Positions 10,012 through 28,877 are shown, numbered from the stretch's first letter. The stretch is DNA of 32,000 nt from Promethearchaeum syntrophicum (GCF_008000775.2 NZ_CP042905.2:3270001-3302000); one strand, 5' to 3'. Numbers and translations: made by a program. Notes: generated by a model from the letters alone, not told the origin.

Positions 10012-10021
10012 CCATTTTATT

Positions 10022-11092: not shown

Positions 11093-11115
11093 TTTTTTGT
11101 TCTTATTTTAAAAAA

Positions 11116-12141
11116 TTAATACCTAATCCTTGGATCTAGAAATGCATAAATTAAATCCGTTAATAAATTAATTACAACGAATAGAAGCGTTACAACGAAT
11201 ACAGATGCTTGTAATACCCAATAATCTCCCGTTCGTATTGCAGTAATTATTGTTTGACCCATTCCTACTAATTGAAAAGTAGTCTCTGTAAGAACTGCAC
11301 CAGAAATTAAAAAGGCAAAATTTAATCCAATTATCGTAACTGTTGGAATAAGAGCATTTCGTAAAGCATGTGAATTTATAACTACGAATTCTTTACAACC
11401 TTTTGCACGAGAAGTTCTAATATAATCTTGTTCTAATACCTCAAGCATGCTTGATCGAGTTTGACGAGTTACACTGGCAATTGTAATAAATGTTAGACAG
11501 AATACAGGCATAATAAGGTGAAGAGCGTAATCCCAAAATAAGTCCCAACGACCTTCAAGAATACTATCTAACCAAATAAAATTAGTTACTACTGTAGGAT
11601 TATCGAGTCCAGAAGATTTAAATCCTGTTCCTGGAAGTAGAGAAAACCCTGGAATCCCTCCAGCAAGTAAAAATCTGAGTAATAAACCCATCCAAAATAC
11701 TGGAATAGAAACGCCAACAAGTGCAATAAATCTCACAGTTGTATCTTTCCATTTATTCCGATTGGTGGAACTTATTATCCCTGATATGATACCAATGATT
11801 GATGATAAAATAACAGATGTAACTGTAATATCAAAGGTTCTGGGAAAACGCGTCCAAATTATCCCCCATACTGGTTGTCCTCTATCTACTCCCGATGAGG
11901 TACCCCAATTGCCTATGAAAAGATCTTTAATATACAATATATATTGTTGCCATAAAGGAAGATGTAAACCTAAAGATCGTTCAACAGAATCATATTGTGC
12001 TTGACTAAATTGTTGTGGTAAAAAAGCAATTACAGGATCATTAGGACCAAGTCTTGCTAAGAAAAACGTTAAAGTTAGAACAGCTAAAATCACCGGTATC
12101 ATTATTAGAAGTCTTTTCAATGTATATGAAAACATACTCAT
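11116..12141 (-). CDS. oligopeptide ABC transporter permease (OppB/DppB-like)
   Basis: Polytopic protein with YIRTSRAKGCKEFVVINSHALRNALIP permease loop and C-terminal LDPRIRY. GGAGGT SD sits inside the end of the upstream ORF. Confidence 0.85.
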   Translation of the reverse strand: MSMFSYTLKRLLIMIPVILAVLTLTFFLARLGPNDPVIAFLPQQFSQAQYDSVERSLGLHLPLWQQYILYIKDLFIGNWGTSSGVDRGQPVWGIIWTRFPRTFDITVTSVILSSIIGIISGIISSTNRNKWKDTTVRFIALVGVSIPVFWMGLLLRFLLAGGIPGFSLLPGTGFKSSGLDNPTVVTNFIWLDSILEGRWDLFWDYALHLIMPVFCLTFITIASVTRQTRSSMLEVLEQDYIRTSRAKGCKEFVVINSHALRNALIPTVTIIGLNFAFLISGAVLTETTFQLVGMGQTIITAIRTGDYWVLQASVFVVTLLFVVINLLTDLIYAFLDPRIRY

Positions 12142-12142
12142 A

Positions 12143-12727
12143 TTATTTTACCTCCTGTTTTGGTGGTTCATGTAAGTTATTATTAATGTGAATTTCATGC
12201 TTCTTCTTCAAATACTTCTGATATTCTTTCTTTACGGCACATCCCACAAAAGCACTAAAATAATAAAGAATAATTACTATAAGAATTGACAAATAACCCT
12301 CAAATCTACCTATTCCTTCCACTTTTATGAATCCAAAAAATATTGGGATTAAAGACAAATCAAATTCGACTGCCATCCAATGCCAGAAAAAAGATAAGAT
12401 AAAAGTGAATATAATTAAATAATGTGTATATCTAAGAGCATATTCATGAAAATTTTCACGAAATGCCATAAACGCGATTATTAAAAATACCAGTATTGTA
12501 GCAAGCCATGTTGATTTAGAGAAGAAAATTCGATTTAAAAATAATATTTCATAAGAGACAATTCCTTCTTCTGAGATGAATTCATTGTAAACAGAACATA
12601 TATACCCGAAGAATATGAAATAAATCCCCAGAAGACTTAAAATAAAATTACCTTGTTTAGTAATTTCCCTTTTTTCTCTATGTATGTTTTTTTTAATTTT
12701 TTTTTCTTCTTTTTCTTTTTTTTGCAT
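12143..12727 (-). CDS. unknown 4-TM membrane protein embedded in the opp operon
   Basis: The open frame runs to 12808, but the track start there is a TTG in low-complexity DNA. The first ATG (MQKKEKEEKK) is at 12727. It has a K/E-rich N-terminus followed by about four hydrophobic helices. Its stop is 1 nt from the OppB ATG and its last codons carry the OppB SD. I recognise no family. Confidence 0.55.
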   Translation of the reverse strand: MQKKEKEEKKIKKNIHREKREITKQGNFILSLLGIYFIFFGYICSVYNEFISEEGIVSYEILFLNRIFFSKSTWLATILVFLIIAFMAFRENFHEYALRYTHYLIIFTFILSFFWHWMAVEFDLSLIPIFFGFIKVEGIGRFEGYLSILIVIILYYFSAFVGCAVKKEYQKYLKKKHEIHINNNLHEPPKQEVK

Positions 12728-12892
12728 ATTGTTAGACTCCTGTTTTGATAAAAAATTCGATAATATTATTTCATTTTTTTTAGTTTTTGAGTTTTTTTTT
12801 TTGAGCAAATTTATAATGGATTTCTATGATATAGTTTTAAGACTTTTATTTTGGTTTATTCATAAATAATTGATATTATAATCATGATTAAT

Positions 12893-12903
12893 AAAAAAAA
12901 AAA
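12893..12903 (-). terminator. T11 tract on the transcribed strand 19 nt after the oppA stop (intra-operon terminator or attenuator candidate)
   Basis: A11 on the + strand at 12893-12903, which is T11 on the - strand. The oppA TAA is at 12923-12925. Confidence 0.4.
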
Positions 12904-12922
12904 TAAAGAAATTAAATTAAGA

Positions 12923-14731
12923 TTAATTTGATTTCTTCTTAATTGCTTTCACTAAGTATAAAGAAGCTGCCAATGAGAAGATTGCTATGAAAGTGACAGT
13001 ATATCCAGGAATTCCAATACCAGAACTAGGTTCGATAGGAATTGCCCATTGATCTTCTGGAACTGTACCAAATTCAACAGGTGCATAATATTCTTTACCC
13101 ATCGGATTGCTTGGATAACCTTTAACACCTCTGAAACAATCCCAGTTTTGAGTATTAACACCATATACCCATGGCATTTGTTCTTCAACTAGAATTCTTT
13201 GAATTTCAGCATACATTTCAGCTCGAACAGTTTGATTAATTTCAACCAATGCATCTGCTAACATTGCATCGATAGTTGCATTGCTAAATTGAGCTCCATT
13301 AGAACCACCACTTGTAGATAATAAAGGATCTAACCAGTTGCTAGGATCATTATAATCAGGAATCCATCCTACCCAGAATAATTCTAACATATCTCTCGTA
13401 TATCCCTCAATATCATATAATCGATAGAGGAAATCATCCCAAATCATACCAGCATCAGTCACAACAATACCGATTTCTTCAAGAGTGTCTTTTAATACGG
13501 GAAACAGATCGGCTCTAATTTGATTATCAGTATTATAGGTGTAATTGAATGTTAAGAAATCTCCTCTTCTCCAACTTGAATTATCATTGAGCTCTAAATC
13601 TTCACCATAACCAGCTGCTTGCATTTTCTCTCGAGCTTTAATAATATCTGTAGTTGCTTCTTGTGAGGAATAATCTGACATTAAAACACCTTTAGGTACT
13701 GGACTTTCTAATCTATCAGCATAACCATCATAAACTTCAGCAATAACATAGTCATAATCAAATGCATAGGAAATAGCCTGTCGAACATCTACTGGGATAA
13801 GTTTAGTATTCATTCCTAAATATGCGGTTCGTAAGTTGGAACCAGGATTAGTTACATTTATCCATGGATCTTCATAGAAATCCCATAAGTATTGAAATAA
13901 TGGATCAGGTTGAATGTGGTAATCACCAGCGGTTAAGCCTTGCATCAAAGTTGGACCATCAGAAACTAACTTATAAACTAGATTAGGAATCTTAGCAGCC
14001 CCTGCAGGGTTCCAATAATCTTCAAACGCAGTAAAAGTAACTTCTACATCAGCAGTAAATTCCCCATAGACATAAGGACCAGTCCCATAGATAGTTCCAT
14101 TTGCAGTTATTACATAGTCTTCGGCAGGAGTGCTGTGTGGAGATTGGATATAAGAAGATCCGAAGCACAATAAAGGTTGGAACGCAGCAAAAGGAGAATT
14201 TAAATGGAATGTTAGTGTTTTACCTACATCGTCGGCAACGGTATTATTAATGATCGGAGTTCCATCTGGAAATTCATATAGTGAACTAGTTTGGACTACA
14301 GCTAGGCCTTCAGTTAAGGTCCCGGTTATATTCATAAAGAAAGCTAACCGATCAAAGTTCCATTTGGCAGCACTTGCATTGAATGGCATCCCATCATGGA
14401 ATGTTACATTTTCTCTTATTGGAACTTCATAGGTTACATTATCTAACCATTCTCCATCAGCGCTTGCTAATACGGGTATAATTGCAAGATCAGGATCAGT
14501 CAAGTCGTATTGAAAAAGACCTTCGATACATTGATCGTAGGTAGCGGAAGAGGCACTATCCCAAGCAAAAACACAATCCAGATCGACGGGACCACGAGTT
14601 TGTCCTACGATTAATGTATCGTCTGTTTGTTGGGCTTTAGGTGCGGTAGCAGTAGCTTCTATAGAAAATAAAGATGGCGCTACTAATAAAACACCCAATA
14701 AAATAAAAATCATTGTTCTTTTTTTATTCAT
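12923..14731 (-). CDS. ABC transporter substrate-binding protein, family 5 (OppA/DppA-like), with N-terminal signal and C-terminal membrane anchor
   Basis: 602 aa. N-terminal MIFILLGVLLVAPSLFS. Family-5 SBP size and operon context. C-terminal hydrophobic helix plus basic tail GYTVTFIAIFSLAASLYLVKAIKKKSN. GGTGA SD before the ATG. Confidence 0.85.
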   Translation of the reverse strand: MNKKRTMIFILLGVLLVAPSLFSIEATATAPKAQQTDDTLIVGQTRGPVDLDCVFAWDSASSATYDQCIEGLFQYDLTDPDLAIIPVLASADGEWLDNVTYEVPIRENVTFHDGMPFNASAAKWNFDRLAFFMNITGTLTEGLAVVQTSSLYEFPDGTPIINNTVADDVGKTLTFHLNSPFAAFQPLLCFGSSYIQSPHSTPAEDYVITANGTIYGTGPYVYGEFTADVEVTFTAFEDYWNPAGAAKIPNLVYKLVSDGPTLMQGLTAGDYHIQPDPLFQYLWDFYEDPWINVTNPGSNLRTAYLGMNTKLIPVDVRQAISYAFDYDYVIAEVYDGYADRLESPVPKGVLMSDYSSQEATTDIIKAREKMQAAGYGEDLELNDNSSWRRGDFLTFNYTYNTDNQIRADLFPVLKDTLEEIGIVVTDAGMIWDDFLYRLYDIEGYTRDMLELFWVGWIPDYNDPSNWLDPLLSTSGGSNGAQFSNATIDAMLADALVEINQTVRAEMYAEIQRILVEEQMPWVYGVNTQNWDCFRGVKGYPSNPMGKEYYAPVEFGTVPEDQWAIPIEPSSGIGIPGYTVTFIAIFSLAASLYLVKAIKKKSN

Positions 14732-14910
14732 AATATATCACCAATTTTAAAAAAAAATTAATCTCTTTCTCGAACCAACTATTTTGATGAAATTTAAGAG
14801 TTGGCCCAATTTTGAAATTATTGATCATATTTAAATCTTTCGATCACATTTATGTTTTCTAATTTATTTTTAAATTTTTTGACCGATTGTGATTTCTTTT
14901 CATATTAATA

Positions 14911-14952
14911 TAAACGTTCGAAATTAAACGTTCGATTTTATACGTTAAATTA
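14911..14952. promoter_or_regulatory. three tandem 14-bp units (TAAACGTTCGAAAT / TAAACGTTCGATTT / TATACGTTAAATTA) in the divergent opp/hydrolase intergenic region; candidate operator
   Basis: Direct repeats read in the sequence. Each unit contains the palindromic cores AACGTT and/or TTCGAA. They lie about 180 bp from the oppA ATG and about 125 bp from the 15075 ATG. Confidence 0.3.
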
Positions 14953-15074
14953 ATATATTTAGATTAATAGAAAATATCATATTTAAAATTATTGATCAAA
15001 CATATATTTCATATCAATATTTTTATATCTGTCAGGTAAAAAAAGTAATTACATTGAAGGGATGATTATATAAT

Positions 15075-16964
15075 ATGCAAAAAATTGCAAGAAGTGATAA
15101 AATAAAGGTTGGAGCTTTTATAATTTGTTCAATAACTTTGTTTAGTTCTTTATTTTTCTCAAACCAAATATTAAACCAAAATCAAATTCAGGAAGAAGAG
15201 AATTTGGTTGCAATTTGGTCATTGTATGCAGTAACAGATGAAATTGAATCACCCTTTGATATTTGGGTTTCTAAACCGGCATTTTCAAATAAAACTAAAT
15301 TTCCTGTTTATATTCTCATTCATGGAGATATTTTAGGTCCAGAATCATTAAATGTTTTAACCCATGAATTAATTAGACAAGAATATATGGTTGTATCGAT
15401 AGGTATACAAGAATTTAGTGTGTATCCAACACTCATTCAGTTAAACGTAGCATTAAATTTTATTTTGGAACGAGATGATGTTAATACTGATCAAATCGGT
15501 ATTTTTGGGCATTCTAGAGGAAGTATTTTTGCTATACTTTTTGGAATTATGAGAGCCGATTACATTAAATCTGTTGTAAGTGGAAATTTTGCTAATTGGG
15601 ACTTGTATTACCAATATGCGAATTTTATGGCTTCGAAAACTAAAGATTTCAATTATATATTAGATTTTTCTATTCCTCACAATATATTATTCCTTCTTAA
15701 CTCAAAGGATAGAAAATTAGAACCGACGCCTACTCGATTTTTGGATGAAATGTTAAAGGAGAATTATACAGATGCTACGAAATTCTATGGTAATTTTTCG
15801 GAAGGAACGGCAAGACAATTCTTATATAGTAATTCATCTTTTGGTCATCTTTCATCATTATATGATGAAGAACAAATCAAAATTCTCATTAATTGGACAA
15901 ATAGTGCATTAAATTATGACTCCGGATTATCAGTTGGGGAAATTGATGTGTTAAGTATTAAAAATTATGTATCAATCAATTTCTTCTTTTTTGTCTTTGA
16001 TATTATACTCGTTTTTATAATCTCCTTTTTACTTATCAAAAGTATCATATTCCAAAATAAAAAAGTTTTACCTCTGCTAAGTAAACTAAAGAATAGTATT
16101 GTTCCTAGACCCGAACTGGAAAATGAAGGTATTATGTCAGAGAGAGATAAAGAAGATACTCTTAGATATTTGGATAGAATTCCTTTTGAAGTAAAATATG
16201 AAGAACATTCCCAAATTATTAAATCCTTCAATCAAAAGGACTTTAAAAAAAAAATTCTTATTTTCTTAGGTGTTATCTATTTGGCTTTTATTATAATAAA
16301 AATTCCAATAATTCCTATCCCTCAATCATTTTTAGTATCCAGTATAGTCCCATTATTCAGAATAAGATTATTCTCGAGATATATATATTACATTTTAGAT
16401 TTATTTTTTCCTTTTACTTATATTTGGTTTTGGTTGCTAATTTTTGCACTTTTAACTTGGAGTTTTTTAAGAAAGGAAAAATTAACCCGAATTGGTAAAT
16501 ATTCTGGTAATAATTATGTTTTGGGATTATTCAATGGACTTGAGATTTTTTTAATACTCGCTAGTCTGAATTTATTAATTTTGGATAGATTTTTTGGAGT
16601 TTCCTTTTCAGAATTCTTTCTTAGAAATGGGTTAAGCACATATTTGTTACTCTATCTAATTAATTTATTTGTTTTTGAATTTTTCTCAAGAATTATTAAG
16701 GAGGATAGTCTAAAATACTGGAAAATGGTCGGGATTCAATTTATTGTTTATTTCCCTATTATTTTTCCTGAAATCTTGAACCCCAGTCCAATTTTAGAGA
16801 TGTATTTTTGTATTATTCTTTTAATTTTTCTAAATCCTTGGCTTTATAAATTATTTAAAAATATAAAAGTAATCAGCTTATGCAATTATTTGTTGATGGT
16901 TTTTTTCTTTTCACTTTTCTATTTTGAAAATAGAGCAAGTTGGGAGGGAAAACTCTTCTATTAA
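15075..16964 (+). CDS. alpha/beta hydrolase domain (GHSRG nucleophile elbow) fused to a C-terminal polytopic membrane domain
   Basis: N-terminal signal-anchor VGAFIICSITLFSSLFFS. Hydrolase core FPVYILIHGD...IGIFGHSRGSIFAILFG. From about aa 300 there are eight or more hydrophobic helices. Confidence 0.75.
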   Translation: MQKIARSDKIKVGAFIICSITLFSSLFFSNQILNQNQIQEEENLVAIWSLYAVTDEIESPFDIWVSKPAFSNKTKFPVYILIHGDILGPESLNVLTHELIRQEYMVVSIGIQEFSVYPTLIQLNVALNFILERDDVNTDQIGIFGHSRGSIFAILFGIMRADYIKSVVSGNFANWDLYYQYANFMASKTKDFNYILDFSIPHNILFLLNSKDRKLEPTPTRFLDEMLKENYTDATKFYGNFSEGTARQFLYSNSSFGHLSSLYDEEQIKILINWTNSALNYDSGLSVGEIDVLSIKNYVSINFFFFVFDIILVFIISFLLIKSIIFQNKKVLPLLSKLKNSIVPRPELENEGIMSERDKEDTLRYLDRIPFEVKYEEHSQIIKSFNQKDFKKKILIFLGVIYLAFIIIKIPIIPIPQSFLVSSIVPLFRIRLFSRYIYYILDLFFPFTYIWFWLLIFALLTWSFLRKEKLTRIGKYSGNNYVLGLFNGLEIFLILASLNLLILDRFFGVSFSEFFLRNGLSTYLLLYLINLFVFEFFSRIIKEDSLKYWKMVGIQFIVYFPIIFPEILNPSPILEMYFCIILLIFLNPWLYKLFKNIKVISLCNYLLMVFFFSLFYFENRASWEGKLFY

Positions 16965-17072: not shown

Positions 17073-18032
17073 ATGTTCTTTGGAAGAAAATACGCAAAAA
17101 GTATGTCGAAAACAAGAATTATAAATAAGAAATCAGATGGTGGTCCAATGATATTTCTAATTGACATCTTCCAAAATGAAACCTTTCTTAATCCCATCTT
17201 ACCAATCCCTAGCAGAATAGATAAAATAATAAATGGGGATATTTCTGGTTTAATAACTCCATCCGAACCTATATCAATTAAGATCAATGAAATTGAATAT
17301 TCCTTTAATTATGAAAAACTTTACCAAAATATTGTTAAAAATTTGATTCATTATGCTCTTTCTAAGTTTAAAGAAGTTTCTTTTCAACCACTAAAAAAAA
17401 AAAAAATAGAGAATTGGTGGAACTTGCTAATCCAAAATGAGCATAAAATAAAGTCTTATGAGGAAGATTTATTCGTTATCCTACAATCTTATTTAGAAGC
17501 ATATAAATCATATAGATCTGGCTTGAAATTAGAAGAAGCATTATTACTATATTGTGATTCAATAATTACATATTGTAATAAAAAAATTGAGCAAAATGTG
17601 ATTAAATTTAATTCTCGAGGGAAAGAAAAACAATTCCCCATGTATAAAATGAATAGGGGTAAATTGTATCCAAATATTTGTGAATATGATATTCTTAATT
17701 ATCAAAAAAAACATATTTTTCAGAAAGCTTTCATTCCACTTCTTATTTATGATGATTTATTAGAATGTTTTTTATTCAATAAACAAATTTTGCAATTGAA
17801 ACTTAATCCTAATTTATCTTTTGAAGAAATTGGGTTTTCTAATCAAGCAGAATTAGAAGAACAATTAGATTTTCTAAATAATTCTAAGCTTATTAGTTTT
17901 GATTATCTAATAAATCAAGATTTATTAAAAAAAACAGAACAAAACCAAGATGACTCATCTAATAAAAAACAAATCTTCCTAAAAGATCTACTTGCAGACA
18001 TATCTGTCGATTCTATTATACAAAAAGAATAA
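17073..18032 (+). CDS. hypothetical protein (mostly helical; no family recognised)
   Basis: A 319-aa ORF in AT-rich DNA where long open frames are rare. The start is uncertain, with alternative ATGs at 17103 and 17148. Contains an A14 homopolymer at 17393-17406 encoding KKKK. Confidence 0.5.
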   Translation: MFFGRKYAKSMSKTRIINKKSDGGPMIFLIDIFQNETFLNPILPIPSRIDKIINGDISGLITPSEPISIKINEIEYSFNYEKLYQNIVKNLIHYALSKFKEVSFQPLKKKKIENWWNLLIQNEHKIKSYEEDLFVILQSYLEAYKSYRSGLKLEEALLLYCDSIITYCNKKIEQNVIKFNSRGKEKQFPMYKMNRGKLYPNICEYDILNYQKKHIFQKAFIPLLIYDDLLECFLFNKQILQLKLNPNLSFEEIGFSNQAELEEQLDFLNNSKLISFDYLINQDLLKKTEQNQDDSSNKKQIFLKDLLADISVDSIIQKE

Positions 18033-18104
18033 TTTATCAGTAATTTCTTCTTATTTGGAAATTCAATGAATTTATGAGTAGAAAATAGACTTTCAAATTT
18101 AAGA

Positions 18105-18127
18105 AGTAAATAATGAAAAAATATAGG
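18105..18127 (-). repeat. copy 2 of the 23-bp exact repeat in a gene 3' flank (terminator-like)
   Basis: Identical to 7698-7720. It lies 31 nt after the TAA (18159-18161) of the 244-aa gene, the same offset as copy 1. Confidence 0.4.
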
Positions 18128-18893: not shown

Positions 18894-19031
18894 TTTGGTC
18901 CTTTCGCTCTCGATTTATTTTTGAATAACTTAAATAATTCCCTTTTTATTCTATATGATTTGTTTTTCGTTTATAGCCTTAAATTTTTTTCTATCGTTAT
19001 TTATTTAACTTAGAAAAAACCTAAATAAAAT

Positions 19032-20006
19032 ATGGTCTCACCGAGAGGAAAAATAAAATTAAATCTTGAAATTTATAAAACTATCATAGCTACAACCGTG
19101 AGATATGCTAATGTAAAAATTCCTGAAGAGAAATGGGCTGAAGTGTATGGTCTTTTATATGGATACATTAATGGTGATGATGTGATTGTAACTGAAGCCA
19201 TTCCGTTCACACATACAAAAAAACAACGACATATTCTAAAAGTGGAATTTGACGAGGAAGATTACGCACTTGCAGCATCTATTGAAACTGAGGAATTTTA
19301 TATCAGAGATCCTCCACAATACATAGTAGGCTGGTATCACTCCCATCCGGGAATAAAATTAATGCTCAGTCAAGATGATGTTAAAAATCAATTAGCTTGG
19401 CAAACGAATAACCCTTTAGCAGTTGCTTTAGTTTTTAATCCTGTACGTCTTCTAAAACAGATCGAGGTTCCGGCAAGAAAAGGAGATCCTATTAAGCAAT
19501 TGCATTTGGATACGGGTTTTTTGAATTTTAGACTCGATGATCCTAATCGGGGTTTAGAAGCAGCGTTTCACATAGTTCCATTTGAGTTTACCGATTTAAA
19601 ATTGGATGAAACATTGATATCCAATGCTCAAGAATTTGTTAGATGGGTAACCCGTGCATTTCCCAAAGGTGATGATGTAATATCTGAATATCAAAGATAT
19701 ACTGAATCAAATTTACAGAAATTGGACGAAATTTACAACGGAACAAACAGTTATAAAAATACTCTTATAAGAAAAGGAGAAAACCACCGAATTCCACAAG
19801 TAGTGGAAAATCAATCACAAGAGGCACTCAAAGTATTAGAACAAGGGAATAATATGATAAATATCTTTAAAATTATGAAAAATTATTTAGAATATAAAGA
19901 ACGTGAGCGTTTGATCCCTCAGATTGATGATATTTTAAACAATTGGGATCAAAGAACTATGAACTATATGGAAAATTTCAAGAATTTAGCCAGTAAAGAA
20001 CAATGA
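19032..20006 (+). CDS. JAB1/MPN/JAMM metalloprotease with a long helical C-terminal extension
   Basis: Complete JAMM motif: upstream Glu in AEVYGLLYG, then HSHPGIKLMLSQDD (H-x-H-x7-S-x2-D). About 130 further residues are predicted helical. Ends with TGA at 20004-20006. Confidence 0.8.
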   Translation: MVSPRGKIKLNLEIYKTIIATTVRYANVKIPEEKWAEVYGLLYGYINGDDVIVTEAIPFTHTKKQRHILKVEFDEEDYALAASIETEEFYIRDPPQYIVGWYHSHPGIKLMLSQDDVKNQLAWQTNNPLAVALVFNPVRLLKQIEVPARKGDPIKQLHLDTGFLNFRLDDPNRGLEAAFHIVPFEFTDLKLDETLISNAQEFVRWVTRAFPKGDDVISEYQRYTESNLQKLDEIYNGTNSYKNTLIRKGENHRIPQVVENQSQEALKVLEQGNNMINIFKIMKNYLEYKERERLIPQIDDILNNWDQRTMNYMENFKNLASKEQ

Positions 20007-21818
20007 TTAATAATTTATAGTCATTTTTTTTACGCGATCTTCAATGGTCACCATTTTTTTATCCATTTTGGAGAGATATGTTTCAATTTTCTTACCGCGA
20101 TAATAGAAACTGAAATTTACTTCTTTATTTAAAACGGACCAGTCAGGAACAAAATTTATTGAATCATCGAGAATTTCGGCTCCAAGCAAACCTCTATAAA
20201 AGAGGGAATGTAAGGGGGATTGACCCAAATCATACCCATAACACCTATCGGACTTTGGAATTTTAATAGAATTTACATTATAACTTAAAGGGGGATAGAA
20301 TTTATAAATACCACCATAGAGATTGAAAGAATAATTTAAATAGCGAAAAATCTTATAGCATATCTCAGTTACAATGCGGTTTAAGTTGAATTTTTTAAGC
20401 CCACGTAGTAACCAATAATTTTGTGAGAGTAAAGCTGGACCGTGCCATATTTCATTTGAATAAAATGGTTCATCTAACGCAAGGGTTGGAACTGGAAATT
20501 CACTCCAAAATTCATCAGGGTTAATTAAATGATCCATAATAGGTTGAATATGAACTTTTGATACAATCCCACCGTACAATGCCCAAAATCCTGCGATAGT
20601 TTTCATAGGTTGAATTAATTGAGTTTCAAAATCAAAATCATAGTAAAATTGGGTTTTTGGATCCCAAAAATATTTCTGAGCATTCTCCTGAAGTGCTTCA
20701 GCTTTCTTAAAATAAGATGAACTATTCTCATCTCCCATAATTAAACCCAAAACACCCATATTTTGATAATATTCACACATTTGGGAATTTAAATCAATTA
20801 GTAGTAGAGAGCGATTTTCTGAGGGTTTCTTAAGGTTCCACAAATTTCCATCAAATTGCTGTGAGAAACGTGGGGAACTTTTCATCATTGTTTCTATTCC
20901 AAAATCGTTGACAGAATGGATAGCACCAAAAAGATTGTAAGGTTCAATAAATCTATTTTTTTCCCACCATTCCAAATTTTTTTTACATAAGGGATAAAGC
21001 TCTGAGATAATTTTTTTATCGCCTGATAATTTAGAATAATCTAACAAAACAGATGACCATATTGGGGGTATTGATAACGATTTTTCTGATATCATTCCGT
21101 TTTCCATCAATCCATCAGGTTTTAAATACTCGTTAAATAATTTTATCAATTGTTTTTTGGCTAAATGGGAATGGAACCACATTAAATCCTCGATTATATG
21201 AAGAGATTCCCAAGGAGTCAAAACTTTTGAATATGGCCAGCATGATGAAACAAGATTTGATTCATTAGTAAAATCATGGGGAAATCGATTCAATCTATGG
21301 AGGACCCAATGAAAATTCCAAATTTCTTTACTAATATATCTATTTGTATTGGGTATATCTTCAAGCCATTTTTGAATACTCTTCCGCCTATCCGAAATCG
21401 CGTTCAAAATATCTTCTGACTTAGGAATAACATCATTATTTTTCGAAAAAGAGAAAATATAAAAAAGTTTGTTTGTTTGGGAGACCTCACTAAAATTTTT
21501 GAAATTCTCGTCATGAATTTTTAAATATTGAGTTATTTCAGGCGAGATTTCTAATATGAGACAAGAAAACATACAATAGATTTTTATTTTAAAATCTATA
21601 TAAAATGGAGATTTTAATTTACACAATAAGCAATCTCCATACCATTCTATTGATTTTGGTGGATCCTTTATCAAGAAATCTATAATTATCAAGTTTTTAT
21701 ATCTCAATTGCAAATTTGGTTTTAAATAGCAATCAATCCAAAAATTATTGGGCTCTCTATTCTTTGAGCTCTGGTTAATGGAAAAGATCTTGTAATTAAA
21801 CTCCAGCTCAGAACTCAT
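20007..21818 (-). CDS. (alpha/alpha)6-barrel glycoside hydrolase, GH63 / MGH / trehalase-like
   Basis: C-terminal half has FWDPKTQFYYDFD, GFWALYGGI and IWHGPALLSQNYWLLRGL, which resemble GH63/GH37-type barrel motifs from memory. The N-terminal 200 aa or so are unassigned. No signal peptide. Confidence 0.55.
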   Translation of the reverse strand: MSSELEFNYKIFSINQSSKNREPNNFWIDCYLKPNLQLRYKNLIIIDFLIKDPPKSIEWYGDCLLCKLKSPFYIDFKIKIYCMFSCLILEISPEITQYLKIHDENFKNFSEVSQTNKLFYIFSFSKNNDVIPKSEDILNAISDRRKSIQKWLEDIPNTNRYISKEIWNFHWVLHRLNRFPHDFTNESNLVSSCWPYSKVLTPWESLHIIEDLMWFHSHLAKKQLIKLFNEYLKPDGLMENGMISEKSLSIPPIWSSVLLDYSKLSGDKKIISELYPLCKKNLEWWEKNRFIEPYNLFGAIHSVNDFGIETMMKSSPRFSQQFDGNLWNLKKPSENRSLLLIDLNSQMCEYYQNMGVLGLIMGDENSSSYFKKAEALQENAQKYFWDPKTQFYYDFDFETQLIQPMKTIAGFWALYGGIVSKVHIQPIMDHLINPDEFWSEFPVPTLALDEPFYSNEIWHGPALLSQNYWLLRGLKKFNLNRIVTEICYKIFRYLNYSFNLYGGIYKFYPPLSYNVNSIKIPKSDRCYGYDLGQSPLHSLFYRGLLGAEILDDSINFVPDWSVLNKEVNFSFYYRGKKIETYLSKMDKKMVTIEDRVKKMTINY

Positions 21819-22718: not shown

Positions 22719-22936
22719 AGGTACAAATAGGATTTTAAGTATATGGTTAGTTGGATGTTAGCATCAGAGCTACCGTGAAAATCGAATTTTTAGATTTAAA
22801 CTCACATAATTGGGAGAATTTTTTTAATATTTATAAAAGTTGAAAATTTTTTCCCAAGGTTTTAATACTAGATTTCTCTTAATATCATTGCAAACAAATT
22901 TAGAAAAATTCCAAAAACAACGGTGTTACTGAAAAA

Positions 22937-24874
22937 ATGGATAGAATAAAGCTCCTTGAATTTTTATTTGAAAAAAGCAGGTTTGGTGAGGGATTAACTA
23001 AAATAGAATTTTTCGAAAAACAGAAAAACCTAGAGTTTGAAGAGATCATTCCCATCCAGATAATGAAGATTAGGTTTTATGAAAAATTGGGTTTATATAA
23101 TGAAGGTATTATTCTTGCTAATAGATTGCTTCAAAATCGTGAATTATCTGCAAACCCATTATTTGAAATTGATATTTTCATAGAAATGAATAAAATTTTA
23201 TTTTCAATGGGGAAAAGTGAAAAAATCGTAAAGAATCTATTAATGGCTGAAAAGAAATTGTTAACCATTCAAAGTGCTACTGAATTAGAAATATTGGAGC
23301 GAATGGGAGATTTGGTTACATTACGAATGGGGTGTTTTTGGCAAGAAGGAGAATTAGACAATGCACTATTCTACGCTAAATTCAATTTAGATATTCGGGT
23401 AAAACTAAAAAAACAACTAGATATCGCTAATGCATACAATAATATTGGTGTTATGTATAATGCCAAGGGGAATCTCATTGAAGCTTTGAGTTATTTGAAT
23501 CAAGCATTTAAATTATATTCAGAAATTAATTCAACTCGTGGTTATTCAAAAACAGGAAATAATATTGGGGCAATTCTTATACAATTGGGGAGACTTAACG
23601 AGAGTTTAAAATATATGGAACAATCTCTCGAAATAGATTATTCTGATGGATATATGGAAGGAATTCGGGTAGCCTCTCAAAATATTGGTGAAGTATATTG
23701 GCATAAAGGAGAATATGAAAAAGCATTAAACCATTTATTTAAAGCACTAGACCTATGCTCAAAATCTGAAGATGGATTTCAATTTTCGGAGATATTGGTA
23801 CCCATAGTAGCTGTATTATTAGAAATGAATAATTTAAAACTAGCAAACTATTATTTACATCAACTAGAGCTAATAAAAAATCAAGAAGAAAATAAGATCA
23901 TTCAACAAAGATATTTTCTAACCAGTGCAATGGTGTTAAGGAAAAGTAAAAGTAAAGGATCCTTATCAAACGCTGAAGATTTATTAAAGATTATTATTGA
24001 AGATGATATTCGTTATCATGATATAACTGTGATGGCACTATTACTGATTTCTGAAATTTTAATAGATAAATTTGAGAAAACCAATAATCTCCTGATAATT
24101 GAGGATATACGCAAGAGTATAAAATTATTGGTTGCTATCACAAAGGATACAAAATCTTACTCCCTTATGGTTGAATCTTTACTTATGGAGGCAAAACTTG
24201 CACTATTAGATATCGATTTTCATTTTTCCCAAGCATGTTTAGATAAAGCACTAAAAATTGCAAACGATTTTGAATTAAATCGAATTAAAACTAAAGTGTT
24301 AAACGAATATGATGTTTTTCTCGAAAATTATTCCTTTTGGGATAAAATTTCTAAGAAAGATCAGGATAATTTCAAGCGAAAACAATTAAATATGATTAAA
24401 TCACAGATTCGAAATTTCTTTTCACCAAAACTTGAAGAATTTGAAAAAGGTGAAGCAGACACACCTCTCCTTTTAATTTTAATGCAAATTGATGGAACAA
24501 TCATAGTCTCCCAAGAATTTAATGAAGAGTGGAGAATTAATGGTATGAGATTTAACATCTTTCAAATGAATTTATATAAATATTTACGGAATTATATTAA
24601 TAATTCTGTCGATTTTGCACAATTTGAGGATAATAAGATATTTTTGATGAAAATTGGAGAATCTATTGCATGCTATGTTTATCAAGGGTCCTCTAATTCG
24701 GCTATTCAAAAACTAAGTAAATTTTCAGAAGTCCTGTTAGAAAATCAGCCATTTTTGAATAAAATTAAAGAATCAATAGAAGTTAATCATGAAATTGATC
24801 TTAACCGCCATAAAAGCTTTCAAAATTGGATAAAAAATATTTTTACCACTCCTATCGGAGTAGAAATTATTTAA
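22937..24874 (+). CDS. large TPR-repeat protein with a C-terminal alpha/beta domain (possible longin/roadblock-like fold)
   Basis: Multiple TPR units (AYNNIGVMYNAKGNLIEALSYLNQAFKLY, NIGAILIQLGRLNESLKYMEQSLEI, NIGEVYWHKGEYEKALNHLFKALDL). The last 140 aa or so (PLLLILMQIDGTIIVSQEF...IACYVYQGSSNSAIQKLSKFSEVL) show a strand-strand-helix-strand-strand-helix pattern. Confidence 0.7.
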   Translation: MDRIKLLEFLFEKSRFGEGLTKIEFFEKQKNLEFEEIIPIQIMKIRFYEKLGLYNEGIILANRLLQNRELSANPLFEIDIFIEMNKILFSMGKSEKIVKNLLMAEKKLLTIQSATELEILERMGDLVTLRMGCFWQEGELDNALFYAKFNLDIRVKLKKQLDIANAYNNIGVMYNAKGNLIEALSYLNQAFKLYSEINSTRGYSKTGNNIGAILIQLGRLNESLKYMEQSLEIDYSDGYMEGIRVASQNIGEVYWHKGEYEKALNHLFKALDLCSKSEDGFQFSEILVPIVAVLLEMNNLKLANYYLHQLELIKNQEENKIIQQRYFLTSAMVLRKSKSKGSLSNAEDLLKIIIEDDIRYHDITVMALLLISEILIDKFEKTNNLLIIEDIRKSIKLLVAITKDTKSYSLMVESLLMEAKLALLDIDFHFSQACLDKALKIANDFELNRIKTKVLNEYDVFLENYSFWDKISKKDQDNFKRKQLNMIKSQIRNFFSPKLEEFEKGEADTPLLLILMQIDGTIIVSQEFNEEWRINGMRFNIFQMNLYKYLRNYINNSVDFAQFEDNKIFLMKIGESIACYVYQGSSNSAIQKLSKFSEVLLENQPFLNKIKESIEVNHEIDLNRHKSFQNWIKNIFTTPIGVEII

Positions 24875-24889
24875 AATCGAAAAATTTTT

Positions 24890-24977
24890 TTAAACAAACT
24901 TCGCAATTTTATCGCAAGTTCGATTCGTATCCAGAAAAATTAATCCTAATTTTACATTTTTGAAATTGAAATTTCGT
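24890..24977 (-). pseudogene. Roadblock/LC7 3'-tail remnant R1 (frameshifted, no start codon)
   Basis: About 88 bp align with 27878-27965. It encodes ..KNVKLGLIFLDTNRTCDKIAKFV and TAA. A 1-nt deletion in the A-run shifts the upstream THEISISK segment out of frame. Confidence 0.7.
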
Positions 24978-24993
24978 GAGTATAGTGGTTTAA

Positions 24994-25182
24994 TTAGTTG
25001 CTATTGTTGAAATTTTTTTTGATATCTTGTTCATCTTCGTAAATGAGGGTGTCTAAAAAAATTAGGTCAGGAATTCTCACTTTATCTTTGATTAAATCCC
25101 ATACTTTCATCTCAGATCGAGGGTGAGTTCTATCCTTTTTTAGATCTTTTGCAGCTTCATCTTCCTTTATTTCTTCTAACAA
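24994..25182 (-). pseudogene. decayed Roadblock-tail paralog R1b (ORF-track 62-aa frame, TTG start only)
   Basis: The C-terminus KVRIPDLIFLDTLIYEDEQDIKKNF parallels NVKLGLIFLDTKRTCDKIAKFV. The DNA gtgtctaaaaaaatta matches gtgtctagaaaaatta of the intact gene. There is no ATG, and the frame is closed by a TGA just upstream. Confidence 0.4.
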
Positions 25183-25520
25183 AAATGGATTTTTAGGTGA
25201 AGTTTTTCAATTTGAAAAGCTTTATTCTTATTAGCACTAATTGTTCTTGTGTTAGAGTTAGAATCTAAATTGTTCTTGGCGGAAGAGTTAGATTCTAGCT
25301 CGTTTTCTTTCTTTTATTTTTTGTGTTTCTGTAGTTGAATTTACCATCTTAAGCAGTCACCGATATTTCTTTTACTGCGTGATATTCTAAATCCATTTGT
25401 TTGAGCCGAAGTGTTTCACATGTGTGTTTTATTCAATTTCTGATCGTTAAAAGTTGGATTTTCAGCATTGTCCCAGTGATTTTTTACTAAATTTTCCTTC
25501 CATTGCCAATCACTACAAGA

Positions 25521-25559
25521 TCATGTTTGCGTATCCAGACAAATCAATTGCTGAAGCCT
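25521..25559 (-). pseudogene. short degenerate Roadblock-tail fragment R1c
   Basis: cgtatccagacaaatcaa compares with cgtatccagaaaaattaa in R2. It reads RLQQLICLDTQT then TGA, against KLGLIFLDTKRT in the intact gene. Weakest of the five copies. Confidence 0.3.
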
Positions 25560-25591
25560 ATATCGGAAAAAAATAATTGATTATGGTTCTA

Positions 25592-25753
25592 CTAATGTAA
25601 TTTAACCAGGATTAAAAAAAGGGGAATAAAGCGAATGAATAGAAAATTTCCCTCTAATTCTTTAATAAATCTCTCAGTTTCTTCAGGATGTGATTTTATA
25701 TACTTAATTTTTTTGAGGAAACTCACCCTTTCGGAGCAAAATTCTTTTGACAT
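25592..25753 (-). CDS. possible small ORF or gene remnant (53 aa; the open frame extends to 25819)
   Basis: MSKEFCSERVSFLKKIKYIKSHPEETERFIKELEGNFLFIRFIPLFLILVKLH. A 75-codon stop-free stretch in AT-rich DNA, with no recognisable family or SD. Confidence 0.2.
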   Translation of the reverse strand: MSKEFCSERVSFLKKIKYIKSHPEETERFIKELEGNFLFIRFIPLFLILVKLH

Positions 25754-25901
25754 AACAATCCCAAAGAAATGGTGTAGATCTCGAGCAGAGAGAAAATGAG
25801 TTTTTAAGTTAATTACTACTTAATACGATGAAAATATTAAAGCTTAATATTATATATTTGGAAATTGAATCAATCGGAATAAAAACCTATAAAAAATAAC
25901 T

Positions 25902-26027
25902 CTAAACAAATTTAGCAATTTTATTGCAAGTTCGCTTCGTATCCAGAAAAATTAAACCTAATTTTACATTTTTTGATGTTGAAATCGTTAAAACTGCATT
26001 CTTAATCTTCTGAGTAATTTTTTCCAT
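25902..26027 (-). CDS. 41-codon mini-ORF encoding a Roadblock/LC7 C-terminal tail (R2); gene remnant or micro-protein
   Basis: ATG at 26027-26025, 2 nt after the LRR gene's TAG. It reads MEKITQKIKNAVLTISTSKNVKLGLIFLDTKRTCNKIAKFV and TAG. The last 33 residues differ from the tail of the intact gene at 27878 only at one position (N for D). Confidence 0.45.
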   Translation of the reverse strand: MEKITQKIKNAVLTISTSKNVKLGLIFLDTKRTCNKIAKFV

Positions 26028-26029
26028 TA

Positions 26030-27055
26030 CTATTTAAAAAGAGTCAAATTAGATGGTAGCTTAATCGATAACCGCTTGTTAATTTTTCTTAAAATGGAAT
26101 CAGTGTTTGGAAGGTTCGCTTCGAGGAATTTTCGGTCCTCAAAATCGGCTTCCCAAATCAGTCGGTCGAGTTCATCATCGGTGATAGTGTTTCGATGGTT
26201 TATATATTTTTCAGCGATCTCCGATATGGGTTTGCTGTAAAATTTCATTATTTTATTTTTTAGAACATTTGGATGTACCTCGAAAGCATCATTTCCAAAT
26301 TCGTCGATAAATGGAACCCGATATTCGTTTATTAATTGGATTCCCCGTGGACTAAGCGCAAATGTTTTTTGATACGTTGAATCTATAAATCTTTTTATTA
26401 GATCTTCGCTCACGTTGAAAAGGGTGCGGAGAGGATTATGTTCGATCCAGATGTTTTTTGTGGTCATCTTTGGGAGATATTTTAAGGATGTAAGGTTGTT
26501 GTGGTTGACATTAAAATCTTTTAATTTTGGCAGTTCTGGGGGCAATCCCTTTAAAGATGTGAGTTGGTTGTGATGAAAATTTAAACGTTCAAGGAGATTT
26601 GGGTTGATTTTAGGAAAATAATTTAAATTCGTAAGATTGCATGAAGTAATAGTGATTCCTCTTAAATTTGGGAGAGAATTTGGAATATATTTTAAATTTT
26701 CAAGGGGACAATTAGTTATTGTAATTCCTCTTAAAGAAGATAATTCAGAAGGTAATCCTTTTAGAGAATTTAAAGGAACATTTTGAATTATTAAACCTTT
26801 TAAATGATGTATGGAATTCGGAAGTAATTCTAGGTTTATCGAACCTTTTAATACGCGATTATACAAGTTGATTCTGATAGCATTTGGTTGATTGATTTTT
26901 GCTTCGTATTTTGGATTTTCGTGCGTAATTAAGATTACTTCAGTTGTTTTCAGAATCTTATCAAAGATACGATCAATATCTTCTTGATAATAAATTTTCG
27001 TTTCATTGTTCTCTTTTTTCATATTAAAATCATTCAGTTGTTCTAATTCTTTCAT
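26030..27055 (-). CDS. leucine-rich repeat protein with an unassigned C-terminal domain
   Basis: Six to seven LRR units of about 22 aa (LPSELSSLRGITITNCPLENLKYIP, LPNLRGITITSCNLTNLNYFP, LERLNFHHNQLTSLKGLPPELPKLKDFNVNHNNLTSLKYLP), followed by a non-repeat region of about 130 aa. AGGTG before the ATG. Confidence 0.8.
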   Translation of the reverse strand: MKELEQLNDFNMKKENNETKIYYQEDIDRIFDKILKTTEVILITHENPKYEAKINQPNAIRINLYNRVLKGSINLELLPNSIHHLKGLIIQNVPLNSLKGLPSELSSLRGITITNCPLENLKYIPNSLPNLRGITITSCNLTNLNYFPKINPNLLERLNFHHNQLTSLKGLPPELPKLKDFNVNHNNLTSLKYLPKMTTKNIWIEHNPLRTLFNVSEDLIKRFIDSTYQKTFALSPRGIQLINEYRVPFIDEFGNDAFEVHPNVLKNKIMKFYSKPISEIAEKYINHRNTITDDELDRLIWEADFEDRKFLEANLPNTDSILRKINKRLSIKLPSNLTLFK

Positions 27056-27161
27056 CTATAATACACCTAACACAACACTGGTTTAAATACATTACTCACT
27101 ATTGGTTTTCTAAAAAAAATTTGAATGAAAATAAAAAAAGAAAAGTGAAAAATGGCTTTTC

Positions 27162-27828
27162 CTAGGAAGATTGCGCATCGTCAAATAAAGACACAATTCT
27201 ATCGCAGTAATTACTCATAAATCCATCCGATAACCCAAGCCGAACCTCAAAAATATTTTTTAGGTCGTACCCATAACCATCTTTCATCTTGTGCCAGTAA
27301 TTAAACCATAACTCATTCTTGTCCAAATCTGTAAAGAAATTATAACTATAATACTGATATTCACCCAATTCTATTCTAGTATCCCCTGGATAATTCCAAT
27401 ATAATCTTTGGTTTGGGGCTACACCCTCATATCTGACTAAATTTCTATCAATAAAATCTTGTTTTTTGGGATACCATGGTTGATCTTCCTCAAAAATCTT
27501 GTTTGGATCAAACAATAAATGGATCATCCCCGAATGGTGGTAAATCTGATTAAATGCAGCCACAAATGACACCACAGATGCATGATCCAAGGTTTCTTTT
27601 GGTCTGCTTAAGTCGTTCCATAATTTCGCCGCTTGAGGAAATAGATACTCGTTAGCTATTTGAGATGGAGAACCATACCACCCACCAGTATCTTGTGTAA
27701 ACCAAGTTAATCCTTTTATTCCATATGTCGATCTGCAAAAATGGGAAAATTTGCATTAATTAAGGATTAGTAACCAGAAATAGCGGAATAATCATTCGCT
27801 TTGATTTTAGTTCAAAATTGCCTCGCAT
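27162..27828 (-). pseudogene. disrupted gene of unknown function (5' part separated by frame change and stops)
   Basis: The 142-aa track ORF starts at a TTG. The same frame is open upstream to 27755 (CKFSHFCRSTYGIKGLTWFTQDTGGWYGSPSQ...) with no ATG. A short ATG-started frame (27828-27760, MRGNFELKSKRMIIPLFLVTNP) sits just upstream in another frame. Confidence 0.45.
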
Positions 27829-27877
27829 AAGGGTTGAAATCACGCAAATGAAATAAAAATCTATACACAATTTCCTT

Positions 27878-28243
27878 TTAAACAAATTTAGCAATTTTAT
27901 CGCAAGTTCTTTTCGTGTCTAGAAAAATTAAGCCTAATTTTACGTTTTTTGATGTTGAAATGGTGAGCACAGCATTGGCGCCAGCTGCCATGGTAAGGAC
28001 GTAGCCGTTCTGGCCCCGTACAAACACCTGCTCGAACAACCCCTTCCCGAATTCCTGCGCGGCTCTTTCTGCAAGAGATAAGATTGCAGCAGTCATAGCA
28101 GCGATTCGTGTTTCATCTACATCTGGCGGTAAGGCACTAGCAATCGGGAGACCTTCGATACTTACTACGGCAGCGGATTGAACTTCAGGTATTGAAGCTA
28201 ACAAATTCTTAAGGATTTCTTCGAGTGATTCTTCTTCAGACAT
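27878..28243 (-). CDS. Roadblock/LC7 (MglB-like) domain protein
   Basis: 121 aa. LLASIPEVQSAAVVSIEGLPIASA...RIAAMTAAILSLAERAA...GYVLTMAAGANAVLTISTS is the classic Roadblock/LC7 pattern and size. Confidence 0.85.
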   Translation of the reverse strand: MSEEESLEEILKNLLASIPEVQSAAVVSIEGLPIASALPPDVDETRIAAMTAAILSLAERAAQEFGKGLFEQVFVRGQNGYVLTMAAGANAVLTISTSKNVKLGLIFLDTKRTCDKIAKFV

Positions 28244-28589
28244 TTTTAAGACAGTTCTCCCAAATTTTAAATAACACTAATATTCCAGCAATGAAGATTT
28301 AGAGGAATATTTAATAATTGTATTTTATAATTTAAAAATTTATGATTAGAGAATGATTTTTTTTTGAAAATCTTAATTAACACGTTATTAATAACATTCC
28401 TTTAAAAAACTATCTGCTTTCTATTCACTTCTTTAAATATAAAACTTTTTACTGAGCAGAAAGTTTAATTTAAGGGGAATTCAGAAATTTTATAAATTCT
28501 TAGGACATTATTATATTTGCGGGAGGAAAGTGCGTATTATCTTACATAATGCCTTTTGAACACGACATATTATGTATTGATTAAAGTAG

Positions 28590-28877
28590 ATGGCAGATTT
28601 TTTGCAACATTTAAAATATGGAAGATATTACGCTGTAATTTACAAAAATATATACCAGAGGCCTAAATCAAAAATGACTCATGGACGACAGAAAATGAAA
28701 AATATAACGATAGCGTTACCTGAAATATATGTTAGAAATCTAGAAAAAATTCAGGAGATTGGAATGGTTCCGTCACGCTCTGAGGCAATTAGATTGGCAA
28801 TACGAGAATTTTTAAAAAAAGAAATAAATAATTGCAAGTTACTAGGTTTTGATCCTGAACGCGTCGATGATGATTAA
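28590..28877 (+). CDS. ribbon-helix-helix (CopG/Arc/MetJ-like) DNA-binding protein
   Basis: KNITIALPEIYVRNLEKIQEIGMVPSRSEAIRLAIREFLKKE fits the RHH strand-helix-helix pattern. The true start may be the internal ATG at 28674 or 28695, giving a protein of about 60 aa. Confidence 0.6.
   Translation: MADFLQHLKYGRYYAVIYKNIYQRPKSKMTHGRQKMKNITIALPEIYVRNLEKIQEIGMVPSRSEAIRLAIREFLKKEINNCKLLGFDPERVDDD

Follow-up and report, generated by a model that had tools for sequence, protein, structure and literature searches.

In Thaumarchaeota, integrated mobile genetic elements (iMGEs) insert into protein genes at their 3'-distal regions and, by reuse of the same site, build up tandem arrays (PMC6563490). These elements encode integrases or casposases and are several to tens of kilobases long, with attachment-site (att) repeats or target-site duplications of 13 bp in the worked example and of 29-69 bp in crenarchaea (PMC6563490). 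Here we describe a locus in the chromosome of Promethearchaeum syntrophicum MK-D1, situated in a stretch of 32,000 nucleotides (hereafter the window; coordinates are counted from its first letter), in which an intact Roadblock/LC7 gene is followed on the same strand by two displaced copies of its own last ~30 codons. We propose that tail-bearing DNA was probably integrated twice in series, each time in Campbell fashion, at the 3' end of this gene and that the three tails are the resulting direct repeats, whether a site-specific recombinase or the host homologous recombination machinery was responsible.

The comparison with the archaeal iMGEs is close in several respects, as the 3' end of a conserved protein gene is targeted and the gene stays functional, the target is present as direct repeats, the site has been reused, and insertion can be verified against empty sites. 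The inserts at the MK-D1 locus are however 0.9 kb and 1.9 kb in length and contain no recombinase gene. Among the ICESt1/ICESt3-related islands of streptococci there are cis-mobilizable elements (CIMEs), decayed inserts that have att-type repeats and accrete in tandem at gene ends (PMC5704250). Like these, the MK-D1 inserts lack integration and transfer genes, are flanked by repeats of the target end, and have the newer insert stacked on the older with an internal repeat shared between them; in contrast, CIMEs are bacterial, have short identical att cores, and have a cognate integrase known in related integrative and conjugative elements (ICEs). By this analogy we infer that the MK-D1 inserts may derive from an integrative element.

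Island arrays at the ssrA gene of Dehalococcoides consist of islands of 10-30 kb with a 20-bp repeat, many of them with the DsiB serine recombinase (PMC3146451). They share with MK-D1 the same-strand 3'-end repeats downstream of a single-copy gene, the strain-specific cargo between the repeats, and the presence of some islands without integration modules, whereas their target is an essential RNA gene and that of MK-D1 a protein gene. Insertion at 3'-distal positions together with tandem site reuse makes a site-specific recombinase the textbook agent (PMC6563490, PMC5704250, PMC3146451). Aloposons, the giant-gene transposons of Heimdallarchaeia, target tRNA genes and contain tandem giant genes and a four-gene module with a ParA-like ATPase (PMC8813620). 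The MK-D1 cargo next to the downstream repeat likewise ends in the 3' end of a giant gene (>3,300 aa), just as aloposon giant genes adjoin the attachment site, although there is no tRNA gene in the window or near the homologs.

A further parallel comes from archaeal genetics, in which the laboratory pop-in/pop-out procedure employs single-crossover integration of circular DNA by homologous recombination. Its product has the same geometry as the locus described here, with the homologous segment present on either side of the insert. In the laboratory product these two segments are reciprocal chimeras, and recombination between them can undo the insertion. Pop-in/pop-out is nevertheless an experimental procedure, and to our knowledge no natural process that assembles cassette arrays in this way has been described.

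Among Asgard archaea MK-D1 is the cultured reference, and very little is known of the routes by which its genome acquires DNA. The locus provides a precisely delimited case, with an empty site in relatives, an identified native tail and a cargo traced to a giant-gene/LRR (leucine-rich repeat) unit, in which DNA has been added behind a highly conserved, eukaryote-like signalling gene without damage to the gene. A first-pass annotation of this DNA had regarded the layout as one without a described precedent, whereas gene-end direct repeats bounding accreted inserts are a classical signature of integration (PMC6563490, PMC5704250, PMC3146451). It is therefore an integration scar of a familiar type, and what is unusual is the long in-frame coding repeats, the lack of a recombinase, the tiny cargo and the Asgard host.

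Three copies of the Roadblock gene tail

The host gene and the members of the repeat family, all on the minus strand, are as follows.

27878..28243, minus: intact Roadblock/LC7 gene, 121 aa (Pfam Robl_LC7, E = 9e-22)
27878..27976, minus: tail copy A, codons 90 to stop, the working gene end (nhmmer E = 1.1e-27, 27879-27978)
27852..27877, minus: 3' untranslated region (UTR) shared by A and B, ~25 nt (BLASTN and flank alignment)
25902..26027, minus: 41-codon open reading frame (ORF) consisting of 9 novel codons and tail copy B (25902-26002), stop TAG (nhmmer E = 1.4e-27, 25903-26001)
24890..24982, minus: tail copy C, the native tail, displaced and frameshifted (nhmmer E = 4.7e-21, 24891-24982)

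The nhmmer profile was made from orthologous tails. A repeat finder independently returned one family with three sites (24891-24988, 25903-26000 and 27879-27976), and no further long direct repeat was found within the 32-kb window. The similarity is well beyond that of shuffled AT-rich sequence, as a degenerate 29-nt pattern matches at exactly the three tail sites and has 0 matches in 100 shuffles. Pairwise identity among the repeats is 84-87%, corresponding to 13-16% divergence.

The first-pass annotation had counted five same-strand copies of the tail, of which three stand (E values of 1e-27, 1e-27 and 5e-21) and two degenerate ones are at chance level. For the proposed copy at 25521..25559 (minus strand, 'LICLDTQT') the profile match at 25527-25547 has E = 1.4, the same as chance matches elsewhere in the window, and for that at 24994..25078 (minus strand, 'DLIFLDT...') the match at 25048-25068 has E = 5.1 and the 62-aa ORF has no Pfam match. 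When their contexts were aligned globally with the tail plus flank, the scores were 6.5 (shuffles 7.95 +/- 2.7) and 6.0 (shuffles 6.1 +/- 2.4), neither of them above the shuffles. Both candidates fall within the insert and share one strand, which is a mild hint and no more. Copies B and C were correctly described as clear ones, and the frame of C is indeed broken upstream of codon 99: in addition to the 1-nt deletion already reported it has a 2-nt insertion.

The limits of the repeat are informative at both ends. Homology had been thought to start exactly at the stop codon, but A and B have ~25 nt of 3' UTR in common past this point (27852-27877 and 25878-25901; BLASTN aligns 26000-25878 with 27976-27852 at 84% over 125 nt), so that the repeat unit extends into the first part of the 3' UTR; for B/C and A/C the common sequence past the stop codon is ~8-10 nt. 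At the upstream end the homology stops at codon 89/90 for B and at codon ~92-93 for C, in agreement with the earlier observation that the copies end within a few codons of one another, and these nearly identical limits argue that one site was reused. The ORF that contains B lies directly behind the LRR gene as first described, beginning 2 nt past the LRR stop, although it has 9 novel codons and not 8; tail B itself is situated 28 nt past the LRR gene.

The Roadblock gene is the conserved single-copy Asgard ortholog: its protein matches one from P. syntrophicum with 100% identity, and the identity to orthologs in Loki-, Hod- and Thorarchaeia is 70-98%. Its C-terminal sequence, KLGLIFLDTKRTCDKIAK, is nearly invariant across the Asgard ortholog group. 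In an AlphaFold (AF2) model of the protein (pLDDT 89), strand beta5 (residues 91-98) and helix alpha3 (residues 103-118) make up the repeated tail, the upstream limit of which falls in the beta4-beta5 turn. The tail is therefore native to the Roadblock domain and not an appended motif.

Empty sites in relatives and the native status of copy C

We compared the locus with 31 loci (290 kb) from 13 related lineages, which are referred to by L numbers where they need to be told apart. The MK-D1 features required for this comparison are listed below.

24732..24889: ancestral downstream flank of the Roadblock gene, aligns to L014 575-736 and L013 1104-1200
22937..24874, plus: TPR gene, 645 aa, convergent, present in L001, L020 and L028
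21867..22718, minus: TFIIB gene, the conserved right-hand neighbour of the variable spot

A profile scan found exactly one tail per locus in all 31 loci, and a codon-degenerate tail pattern gave three single-copy matches in genome contigs of Promethearchaeum metagenome-assembled genomes and four single-copy metagenome contigs. The gene order RHH-Roadblock-TFIIB-GH63-JAB is conserved in the relatives, with or without a TPR gene between Roadblock and TFIIB. In ten lineages with contigs that reach far enough the site is empty, the next gene after Roadblock being TFIIB or GH63 at a distance of 50-230 bp, or else a convergent TPR gene. The 50-230 bp spacing from Roadblock to TFIIB is seen in L010, L014, L016, L026, L029 and L030; GH63 directly follows Roadblock in L033; and in L001, L020 and L028 the convergent TPR gene comes first and then TFIIB. 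MK-D1 alone has 2,988 bp from the Roadblock stop codon to the stop-codon position of copy C. The single tail and the conserved synteny of the relatives therefore identify the 2.9 kb between the Roadblock stop and C as an MK-D1-specific insertion.

Copy C together with 24889-24732 aligns unbroken to the tail and the spacer behind it in L014 (85.8% over 247 nt), and likewise in L013 and L020; the one tail of L020 can be aligned with either end of the insertion. Because C runs unbroken into the ancestral downstream flank, which overlaps the convergent TPR gene at its 3' end, C is the tail that the gene had originally and occupies its old position. As read from these alignments, the head and copy A are separated from the native tail C by inserted DNA.

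These data bear on the first of two options raised in the first-pass annotation, namely that the tails are the remains of a decayed tandem array of Roadblock paralogs whose heads were repeatedly deleted while the tails survived. Asgard genomes have many Roadblock paralogs, from which such an array might have been built, and the orphan tails retain near-perfect protein sequence. Nevertheless we consider this explanation extremely improbable, as each related locus in the 13 lineages contains one gene and one tail, C is continuous with the ancestral flank, and there is no trace of a head upstream of B, where the LRR gene abuts, or in the six frames upstream of C. Independent head deletions would moreover need endpoints within ~4 codons of each other. 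All three copies have ACG at codon 110 and the C-terminal KFV, the latter otherwise present only in L013, and these markers of their own ortholog and lineage indicate that none of the copies, B and C included, comes from a distant paralog.

Divergence of the tails

The substitutions that separate the three tails are predominantly synonymous. A and B differ at 13 nt, with a ratio of synonymous to non-synonymous differences of 12:1 (P < 0.0002, random placement), and the ratios are 7:1 for A and C (P = 0.0002) and 4:2 for the two orphans B and C (P = 0.02). B has a single amino-acid change (D-to-N) and is otherwise intact. In codons 95-122, A, B, C and the tails of L013 and L014 are mutually about equidistant, with 7-12 differences per 84 nt. 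A copy made in place predicts few orphan differences, most of them non-synonymous, whereas the opposite is seen, which suggests that the tails are alleles of diverged lineages or periods that were later juxtaposed. They look like sequences that diverged while they were working Roadblock gene ends, in separate lineages or periods, and were then brought together, and it is from this substitution pattern that we infer that the donors carried tails. That B is nearly intact while C, the copy farthest from the gene, is frameshifted fits an order of decay expected from serial insertion at the working tail.

An alternative is that a repair or replication accident within the genome, set off by a break or stalled fork in the 3' end of the gene and involving template switching or the capture of filler from another part of the chromosome, duplicated a target of ~100-125 nt on both sides with neither a tail-bearing donor nor a recombinase. 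This would account for a cargo 1 composed of truncated, ordinary-looking chromosomal DNA (a giant-gene 3' end and an LRR gene) and for the absence of mobile-element genes in scans of the window and insert, and a GC-rich, palindrome-rich stretch just upstream of the repeat boundary (described below) might be fragile, although it has no folding signal. However, copies that arise in place are identical at the start, after which the orphan drifts at every position while the working copy alters at silent sites alone; here the ratios of 12:1 and 7:1 favour synonymous differences, and the tails stand as far apart as orthologs from different lineages. The accident would also be needed twice at nearly the same codon, and the nearest relatives of the cargo are in other genomes (71-78%), the same-species paralog being only 57% identical. 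We therefore regard an accident of this kind as rather unlikely.

It is also conceivable that B is kept because the 41-codon ORF encodes a functional small protein, or is fused to the LRR protein through frameshifting, which would explain why its frame has survived. In favour of this, the ORF is unbroken and begins 2 nt past the LRR stop, just one of the 13 differences from A alters the protein, and the stop is retained as TAG. Against this, beta5 and alpha3 alone cannot make a Roadblock fold in the AF2 model, the synonymous bias is equal in the frame-broken C so that selection in place is unneeded, and relatives with the LRR gene (L022-L025) have no such ORF. Retention of B for its own function therefore seems quite unlikely.

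Within the tails, B differs from L014 at 1/41 nt in the 5' part (codons 90-103) and at 8/58 nt in the 3' part, and the corresponding values for A are 5/41 and 6/58. This hints that A and B are reciprocal chimeras with a crossover near codons 100-104, the difference being statistically non-significant.

Composition and origin of the inserted DNA

Along the gene strand the order is gene-A-cargo1-B-cargo2-C, with B between two unrelated pieces, 1.9 kb of cargo 1 and 0.9 kb of cargo 2, divided as follows.

27714..27851: 138-nt spacer from the UTR of A to cargo 1, without a homolog in any fetched locus
27162..27735, minus: cargo 1a, 5'-truncated giant-gene fragment, last ~190 codons, DSAG12_04540 (tblastn)
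26030..27055, minus: cargo 1b, intact LRR gene, 341 aa, DSAG12_04535 (Pfam LRR_4)
24983..25877: cargo 2, 0.9 kb, without a recognisable gene (six-frame Pfam scan)

The cargo is foreign to the locus, and cargo 1 can be traced. By tblastn, window 27713-27165 matches the C-terminus of a >3318-aa ORF in L023 with 64% identity over 190 aa; a 133-aa ORF in this segment is annotated as DSAG12_04540. At the nucleotide level 27713-26031 is 74% identical to L023/L024 and 78% identical to L022. In L023/L024 the LRR gene directly follows the 3' end of the giant ORF (>3,318 aa), contiguous as in cargo 1, and the LRR homologs, which are 71-73% identical, are found directly after the giant gene (L023/L024) or directly upstream of TFIIB (L022), whereas an LRR paralog within the same species is only 57% identical. 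The giant-gene/LRR unit of L023/L024 is situated among ParE, RmuC and DUF4062 genes in a variable region, and the same genome has an empty Roadblock-TFIIB site of its own (L010/L011). The occurrence of this giant-gene/LRR piece in other contexts (L022-L024) indicates that the cargo is movable accessory DNA. The mini-ORFs annotated at 25902-26027 and as DSAG12_04540 are fragments and not genes. The giant-protein family is rare, with six matches among 1.84 billion representatives, several of them short fragments, and only the self match in another search; a domain search of the giant protein detected none.

In L022 (GCA_018238505.1, 4985-6437) a shorter giant-gene fragment and the LRR gene lie directly upstream of TFIIB-GH63-JAB, and on the other side of them there is an Mrr-type nuclease gene and not Roadblock. 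Given the L022 arrangement, cargo 1 is either old at the locus with repeated loss or has moved between lineages. A TPR gene also follows the LRR gene in L023; its link to the TPR gene beside the MK-D1 array was rejected, as the two have only generic TPR similarity.

Cargo 2 offers less to compare. A six-frame Pfam search of 24978-25901 gave no match, Robl_LC7 included, and tblastx of cargo 2 and the 138-nt spacer against the fetched loci gave only segment X (25289-25457, 169 nt, non-coding), which is 83% identical to L013 1201-1362. In L013, the closest relative, this segment is downstream of the tail and flank and not upstream of a tail, an order resembling a circular permutation; the contig ends within the segment.

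A model of serial integration

We suggest that each incoming DNA molecule, circular or circularisable, would have carried its own version of the last ~30 codons with ~25-40 nt of 3' UTR, together with its cargo. A single crossover within the ~100-125-nt homology would insert the cargo and give the arrangement head-tail-cargo-tail-flank, in which the gene is complete because its end has been rebuilt and the previous tail has been pushed downstream. A second event at the working tail would then yield gene-A-cargo1-B-cargo2-C, with the oldest and most decayed tail farthest from the gene. The candidate agents are a site-specific recombinase, acting in trans or since lost, and host homologous recombination acting on ~100 nt of near-identical sequence.

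In accordance with an integrated element, the insert is absent from the same site in close relatives, it is bounded by direct repeats from the 3' end of the target gene, and the target gene is intact; a recombinase gene, which such an element would also have, is missing from the insert. In descriptive terms the locus also conforms to CIMEs and their accretion, as att-type repeats are kept, recombination genes are lacking and the inserts are stacked in tandem (A-cargo1-B-cargo2-C). Other classes of element were considered and rejected. A transposon target-site duplication would not fit a duplication of ~100-125 nt with no transposase and no inverted repeats pairing the insert ends. There is no intI or other integrase in the window to suggest an integron, and the repeat is a coding gene end. 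An aloposon is not indicated either, as there is no tRNA gene in the window or in L022-L024 and a single giant gene is represented by no more than its final 190 codons.

Several observations weigh against serial integration of tail-bearing elements. No integrase, transposase, viral or other mobile-element hallmark was detected in the inserts or the 32-kb window (Pfam for 29 ORFs, PHROGs and Pfam for the insert ORFs, six frames for cargo 2). IMG/VR has no match for the degenerate tail, segment X or the LRR protein, and the whole insert has no match in phage and plasmid records, so that no donor molecule in the form of a tail- or cargo-bearing viral contig, phage or plasmid was found in these collections, nor has a circular form come to light. 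Cargo 1 starts within a truncated gene of chromosomal type and in this is more like a captured fragment than a self-contained element. The repeats, at 93-125 nt and comprising 30+ codons plus UTR, are longer than the 29-69 bp of crenarchaeal att sites (PMC6563490). They are also non-identical (84-87%), and with longest common blocks of ~11 nt for A/B/C and ~22 nt for A/B the events are too old to show a core, so that no crossover core is identifiable. The synonymous-site comparisons span 69-99 nt each, and selection in place on the 41-codon ORF may account for B alone.

Without recombination genes, the inserts are now fixed relics in decay, much like the cis-mobilizable elements of bacteria. 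Precise deletion between the direct repeats would still be possible, and the locus is predicted to be able to revert in this way to the single-tail state.

Similar arrays in a related metagenome contig

L007 is a 131-kb metagenome contig (JGI 3300037245, Ga0392328_0000041) in which a comparable layout occurs at two further genes. At 8791-16248 there is first an intact DUF2804 gene and then, all on its strand, a near-full-length pseudogene copy (82% identity) and two tail-only copies (last ~115-130 nt) that are 92-95% identical to the pseudogene tail. The stop codons of the DUF2804 copies are kept (TAG, TAA, TGA and TAG), the differences are mostly synonymous, and there are 1-2 small genes between each pair of copies. 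A few kilobases past this array (L007 17985-19103) a Fer4 gene (18966-20291, minus strand) has a second copy of its last ~125 nt at 17985-18108, on the far side of a 1-kb insert with a 227-aa gene; this orphan tail has decayed and contains an in-frame stop. The L007 cassettes likewise have no annotated or detectable recombinase, and no such arrays were found in the other ~250 kb of related sequence. The gene-tail array layout is recurrent, not universal, and the two further arrays in a related contig suggest that tail-duplicating insertion may be a recurrent route of gene gain in the lineage.

One cassette of the DUF2804 array contains a Roadblock head, the 126-aa protein P0028 (L007 10001-10381). 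Its head is 88% identical at the nucleotide level to MK-D1 codons 6-103 and is cut off after codon 103, shortly past the start of the MK-D1 orphan tails; within P0028 a segment of 59 nt is duplicated in tandem (10017-10135), and there is an overlap with a convergent response-regulator gene. This head could be a captured attL-like junction, and the overlap between the L007 head and the MK-D1 tail (codons 90-103, ~40 nt) might correspond to a recombination core.

A broader and more speculative possibility, which we think unlikely, is that Promethearchaeum-type Lokiarchaeia have integrase-free cassette arrays at conserved gene 3' ends that are maintained by host homologous recombination. Circles of cargo with one gene tail would pop out and in and move between related lineages, and tails would cycle between working and orphan positions, which would explain both their in-frame state and their synonymous differences. 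Host gene ends would then serve as an integron-like platform, with MK-D1 Roadblock, L007 DUF2804 and L007 Fer4 as three examples.

A system that is active at present is a different matter. The second option of the first-pass annotation was that the tail is a recombination anchor for the exchange of upstream sequence; this is half right, in that the tail does appear to be where DNA recombined, on two occasions, but it is downstream cargo that was exchanged and not heads, the head being a single conserved sequence throughout the relatives. A currently active module-swapping system with the tail as recombination site, or an integron-like platform still capturing cassettes, could be envisaged from the same-strand repeats that separate short gene-sized inserts here and again in L007 (2-3 cassettes each) and from the retention of frame and stop codons in the orphan tails. 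The copies are nevertheless 13-16% diverged, C is frameshifted and there is no recombinase beside either array, all of which is at odds with ongoing recombination at the tail and makes an active system very unlikely.

Local sequence features and neighbouring genes

The G+C content at third codon positions (GC3) is 0.76 at 27962-28063 (Roadblock codons 61-94) and most marked at 27977-27993, compared with 0.17-0.36 in every other ORF of the window. This stretch leaves the protein sequence unaltered, has three abutting 6-nt palindromes (CCATGGCAGCTGGCGCC), and comes to an end precisely where the repeated tail has its upstream boundary. The same codons in 11 orthologs have a weaker GC3 bias (0.21-0.59), which is partly shared with the L007 copy. 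RNA structure was ruled out as an explanation for the patch (folding z = +1.4), and a uniquely imported tract is unsupported in view of the weaker form in the orthologs and the sharing with L007; one idea is biased gene conversion near a recombination site.

The window, with a G+C content of ~30%, contains ordinary chromosomal genes (TFIIB, a GH63-like hydrolase, a JAB protease, ABC transporters and thioredoxin). An Rfam search of 24500-28600 gave no match and a tRNA search of the 32-kb window found none, which rules out an RNA-gene target or a non-coding RNA as an explanation. A scan for bacterial-type promoters and terminators gave fewer matches than shuffles and is uninformative, as the models are bacterial and the host is archaeal.

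The TPR gene represents a second presence/absence difference at the Roadblock-TFIIB spot. In L014/L015 only the last ~143 nt of this gene are left as the Roadblock-TFIIB spacer (window 22783-24731 compared with L014 575-801), and in L013 ~77 nt are left. A junction recurs in L014, L022 and MK-D1 at the position ~45-65 nt upstream of TFIIB (window 22764-22783). The C-terminal ~170 aa of the TPR protein (24470-24720) form an unannotated domain without a Pfam match, as does the C-terminal part of the response-regulator protein in the L007 cassette (10378-11271), and by eye both look like small alpha/beta regulatory domains.

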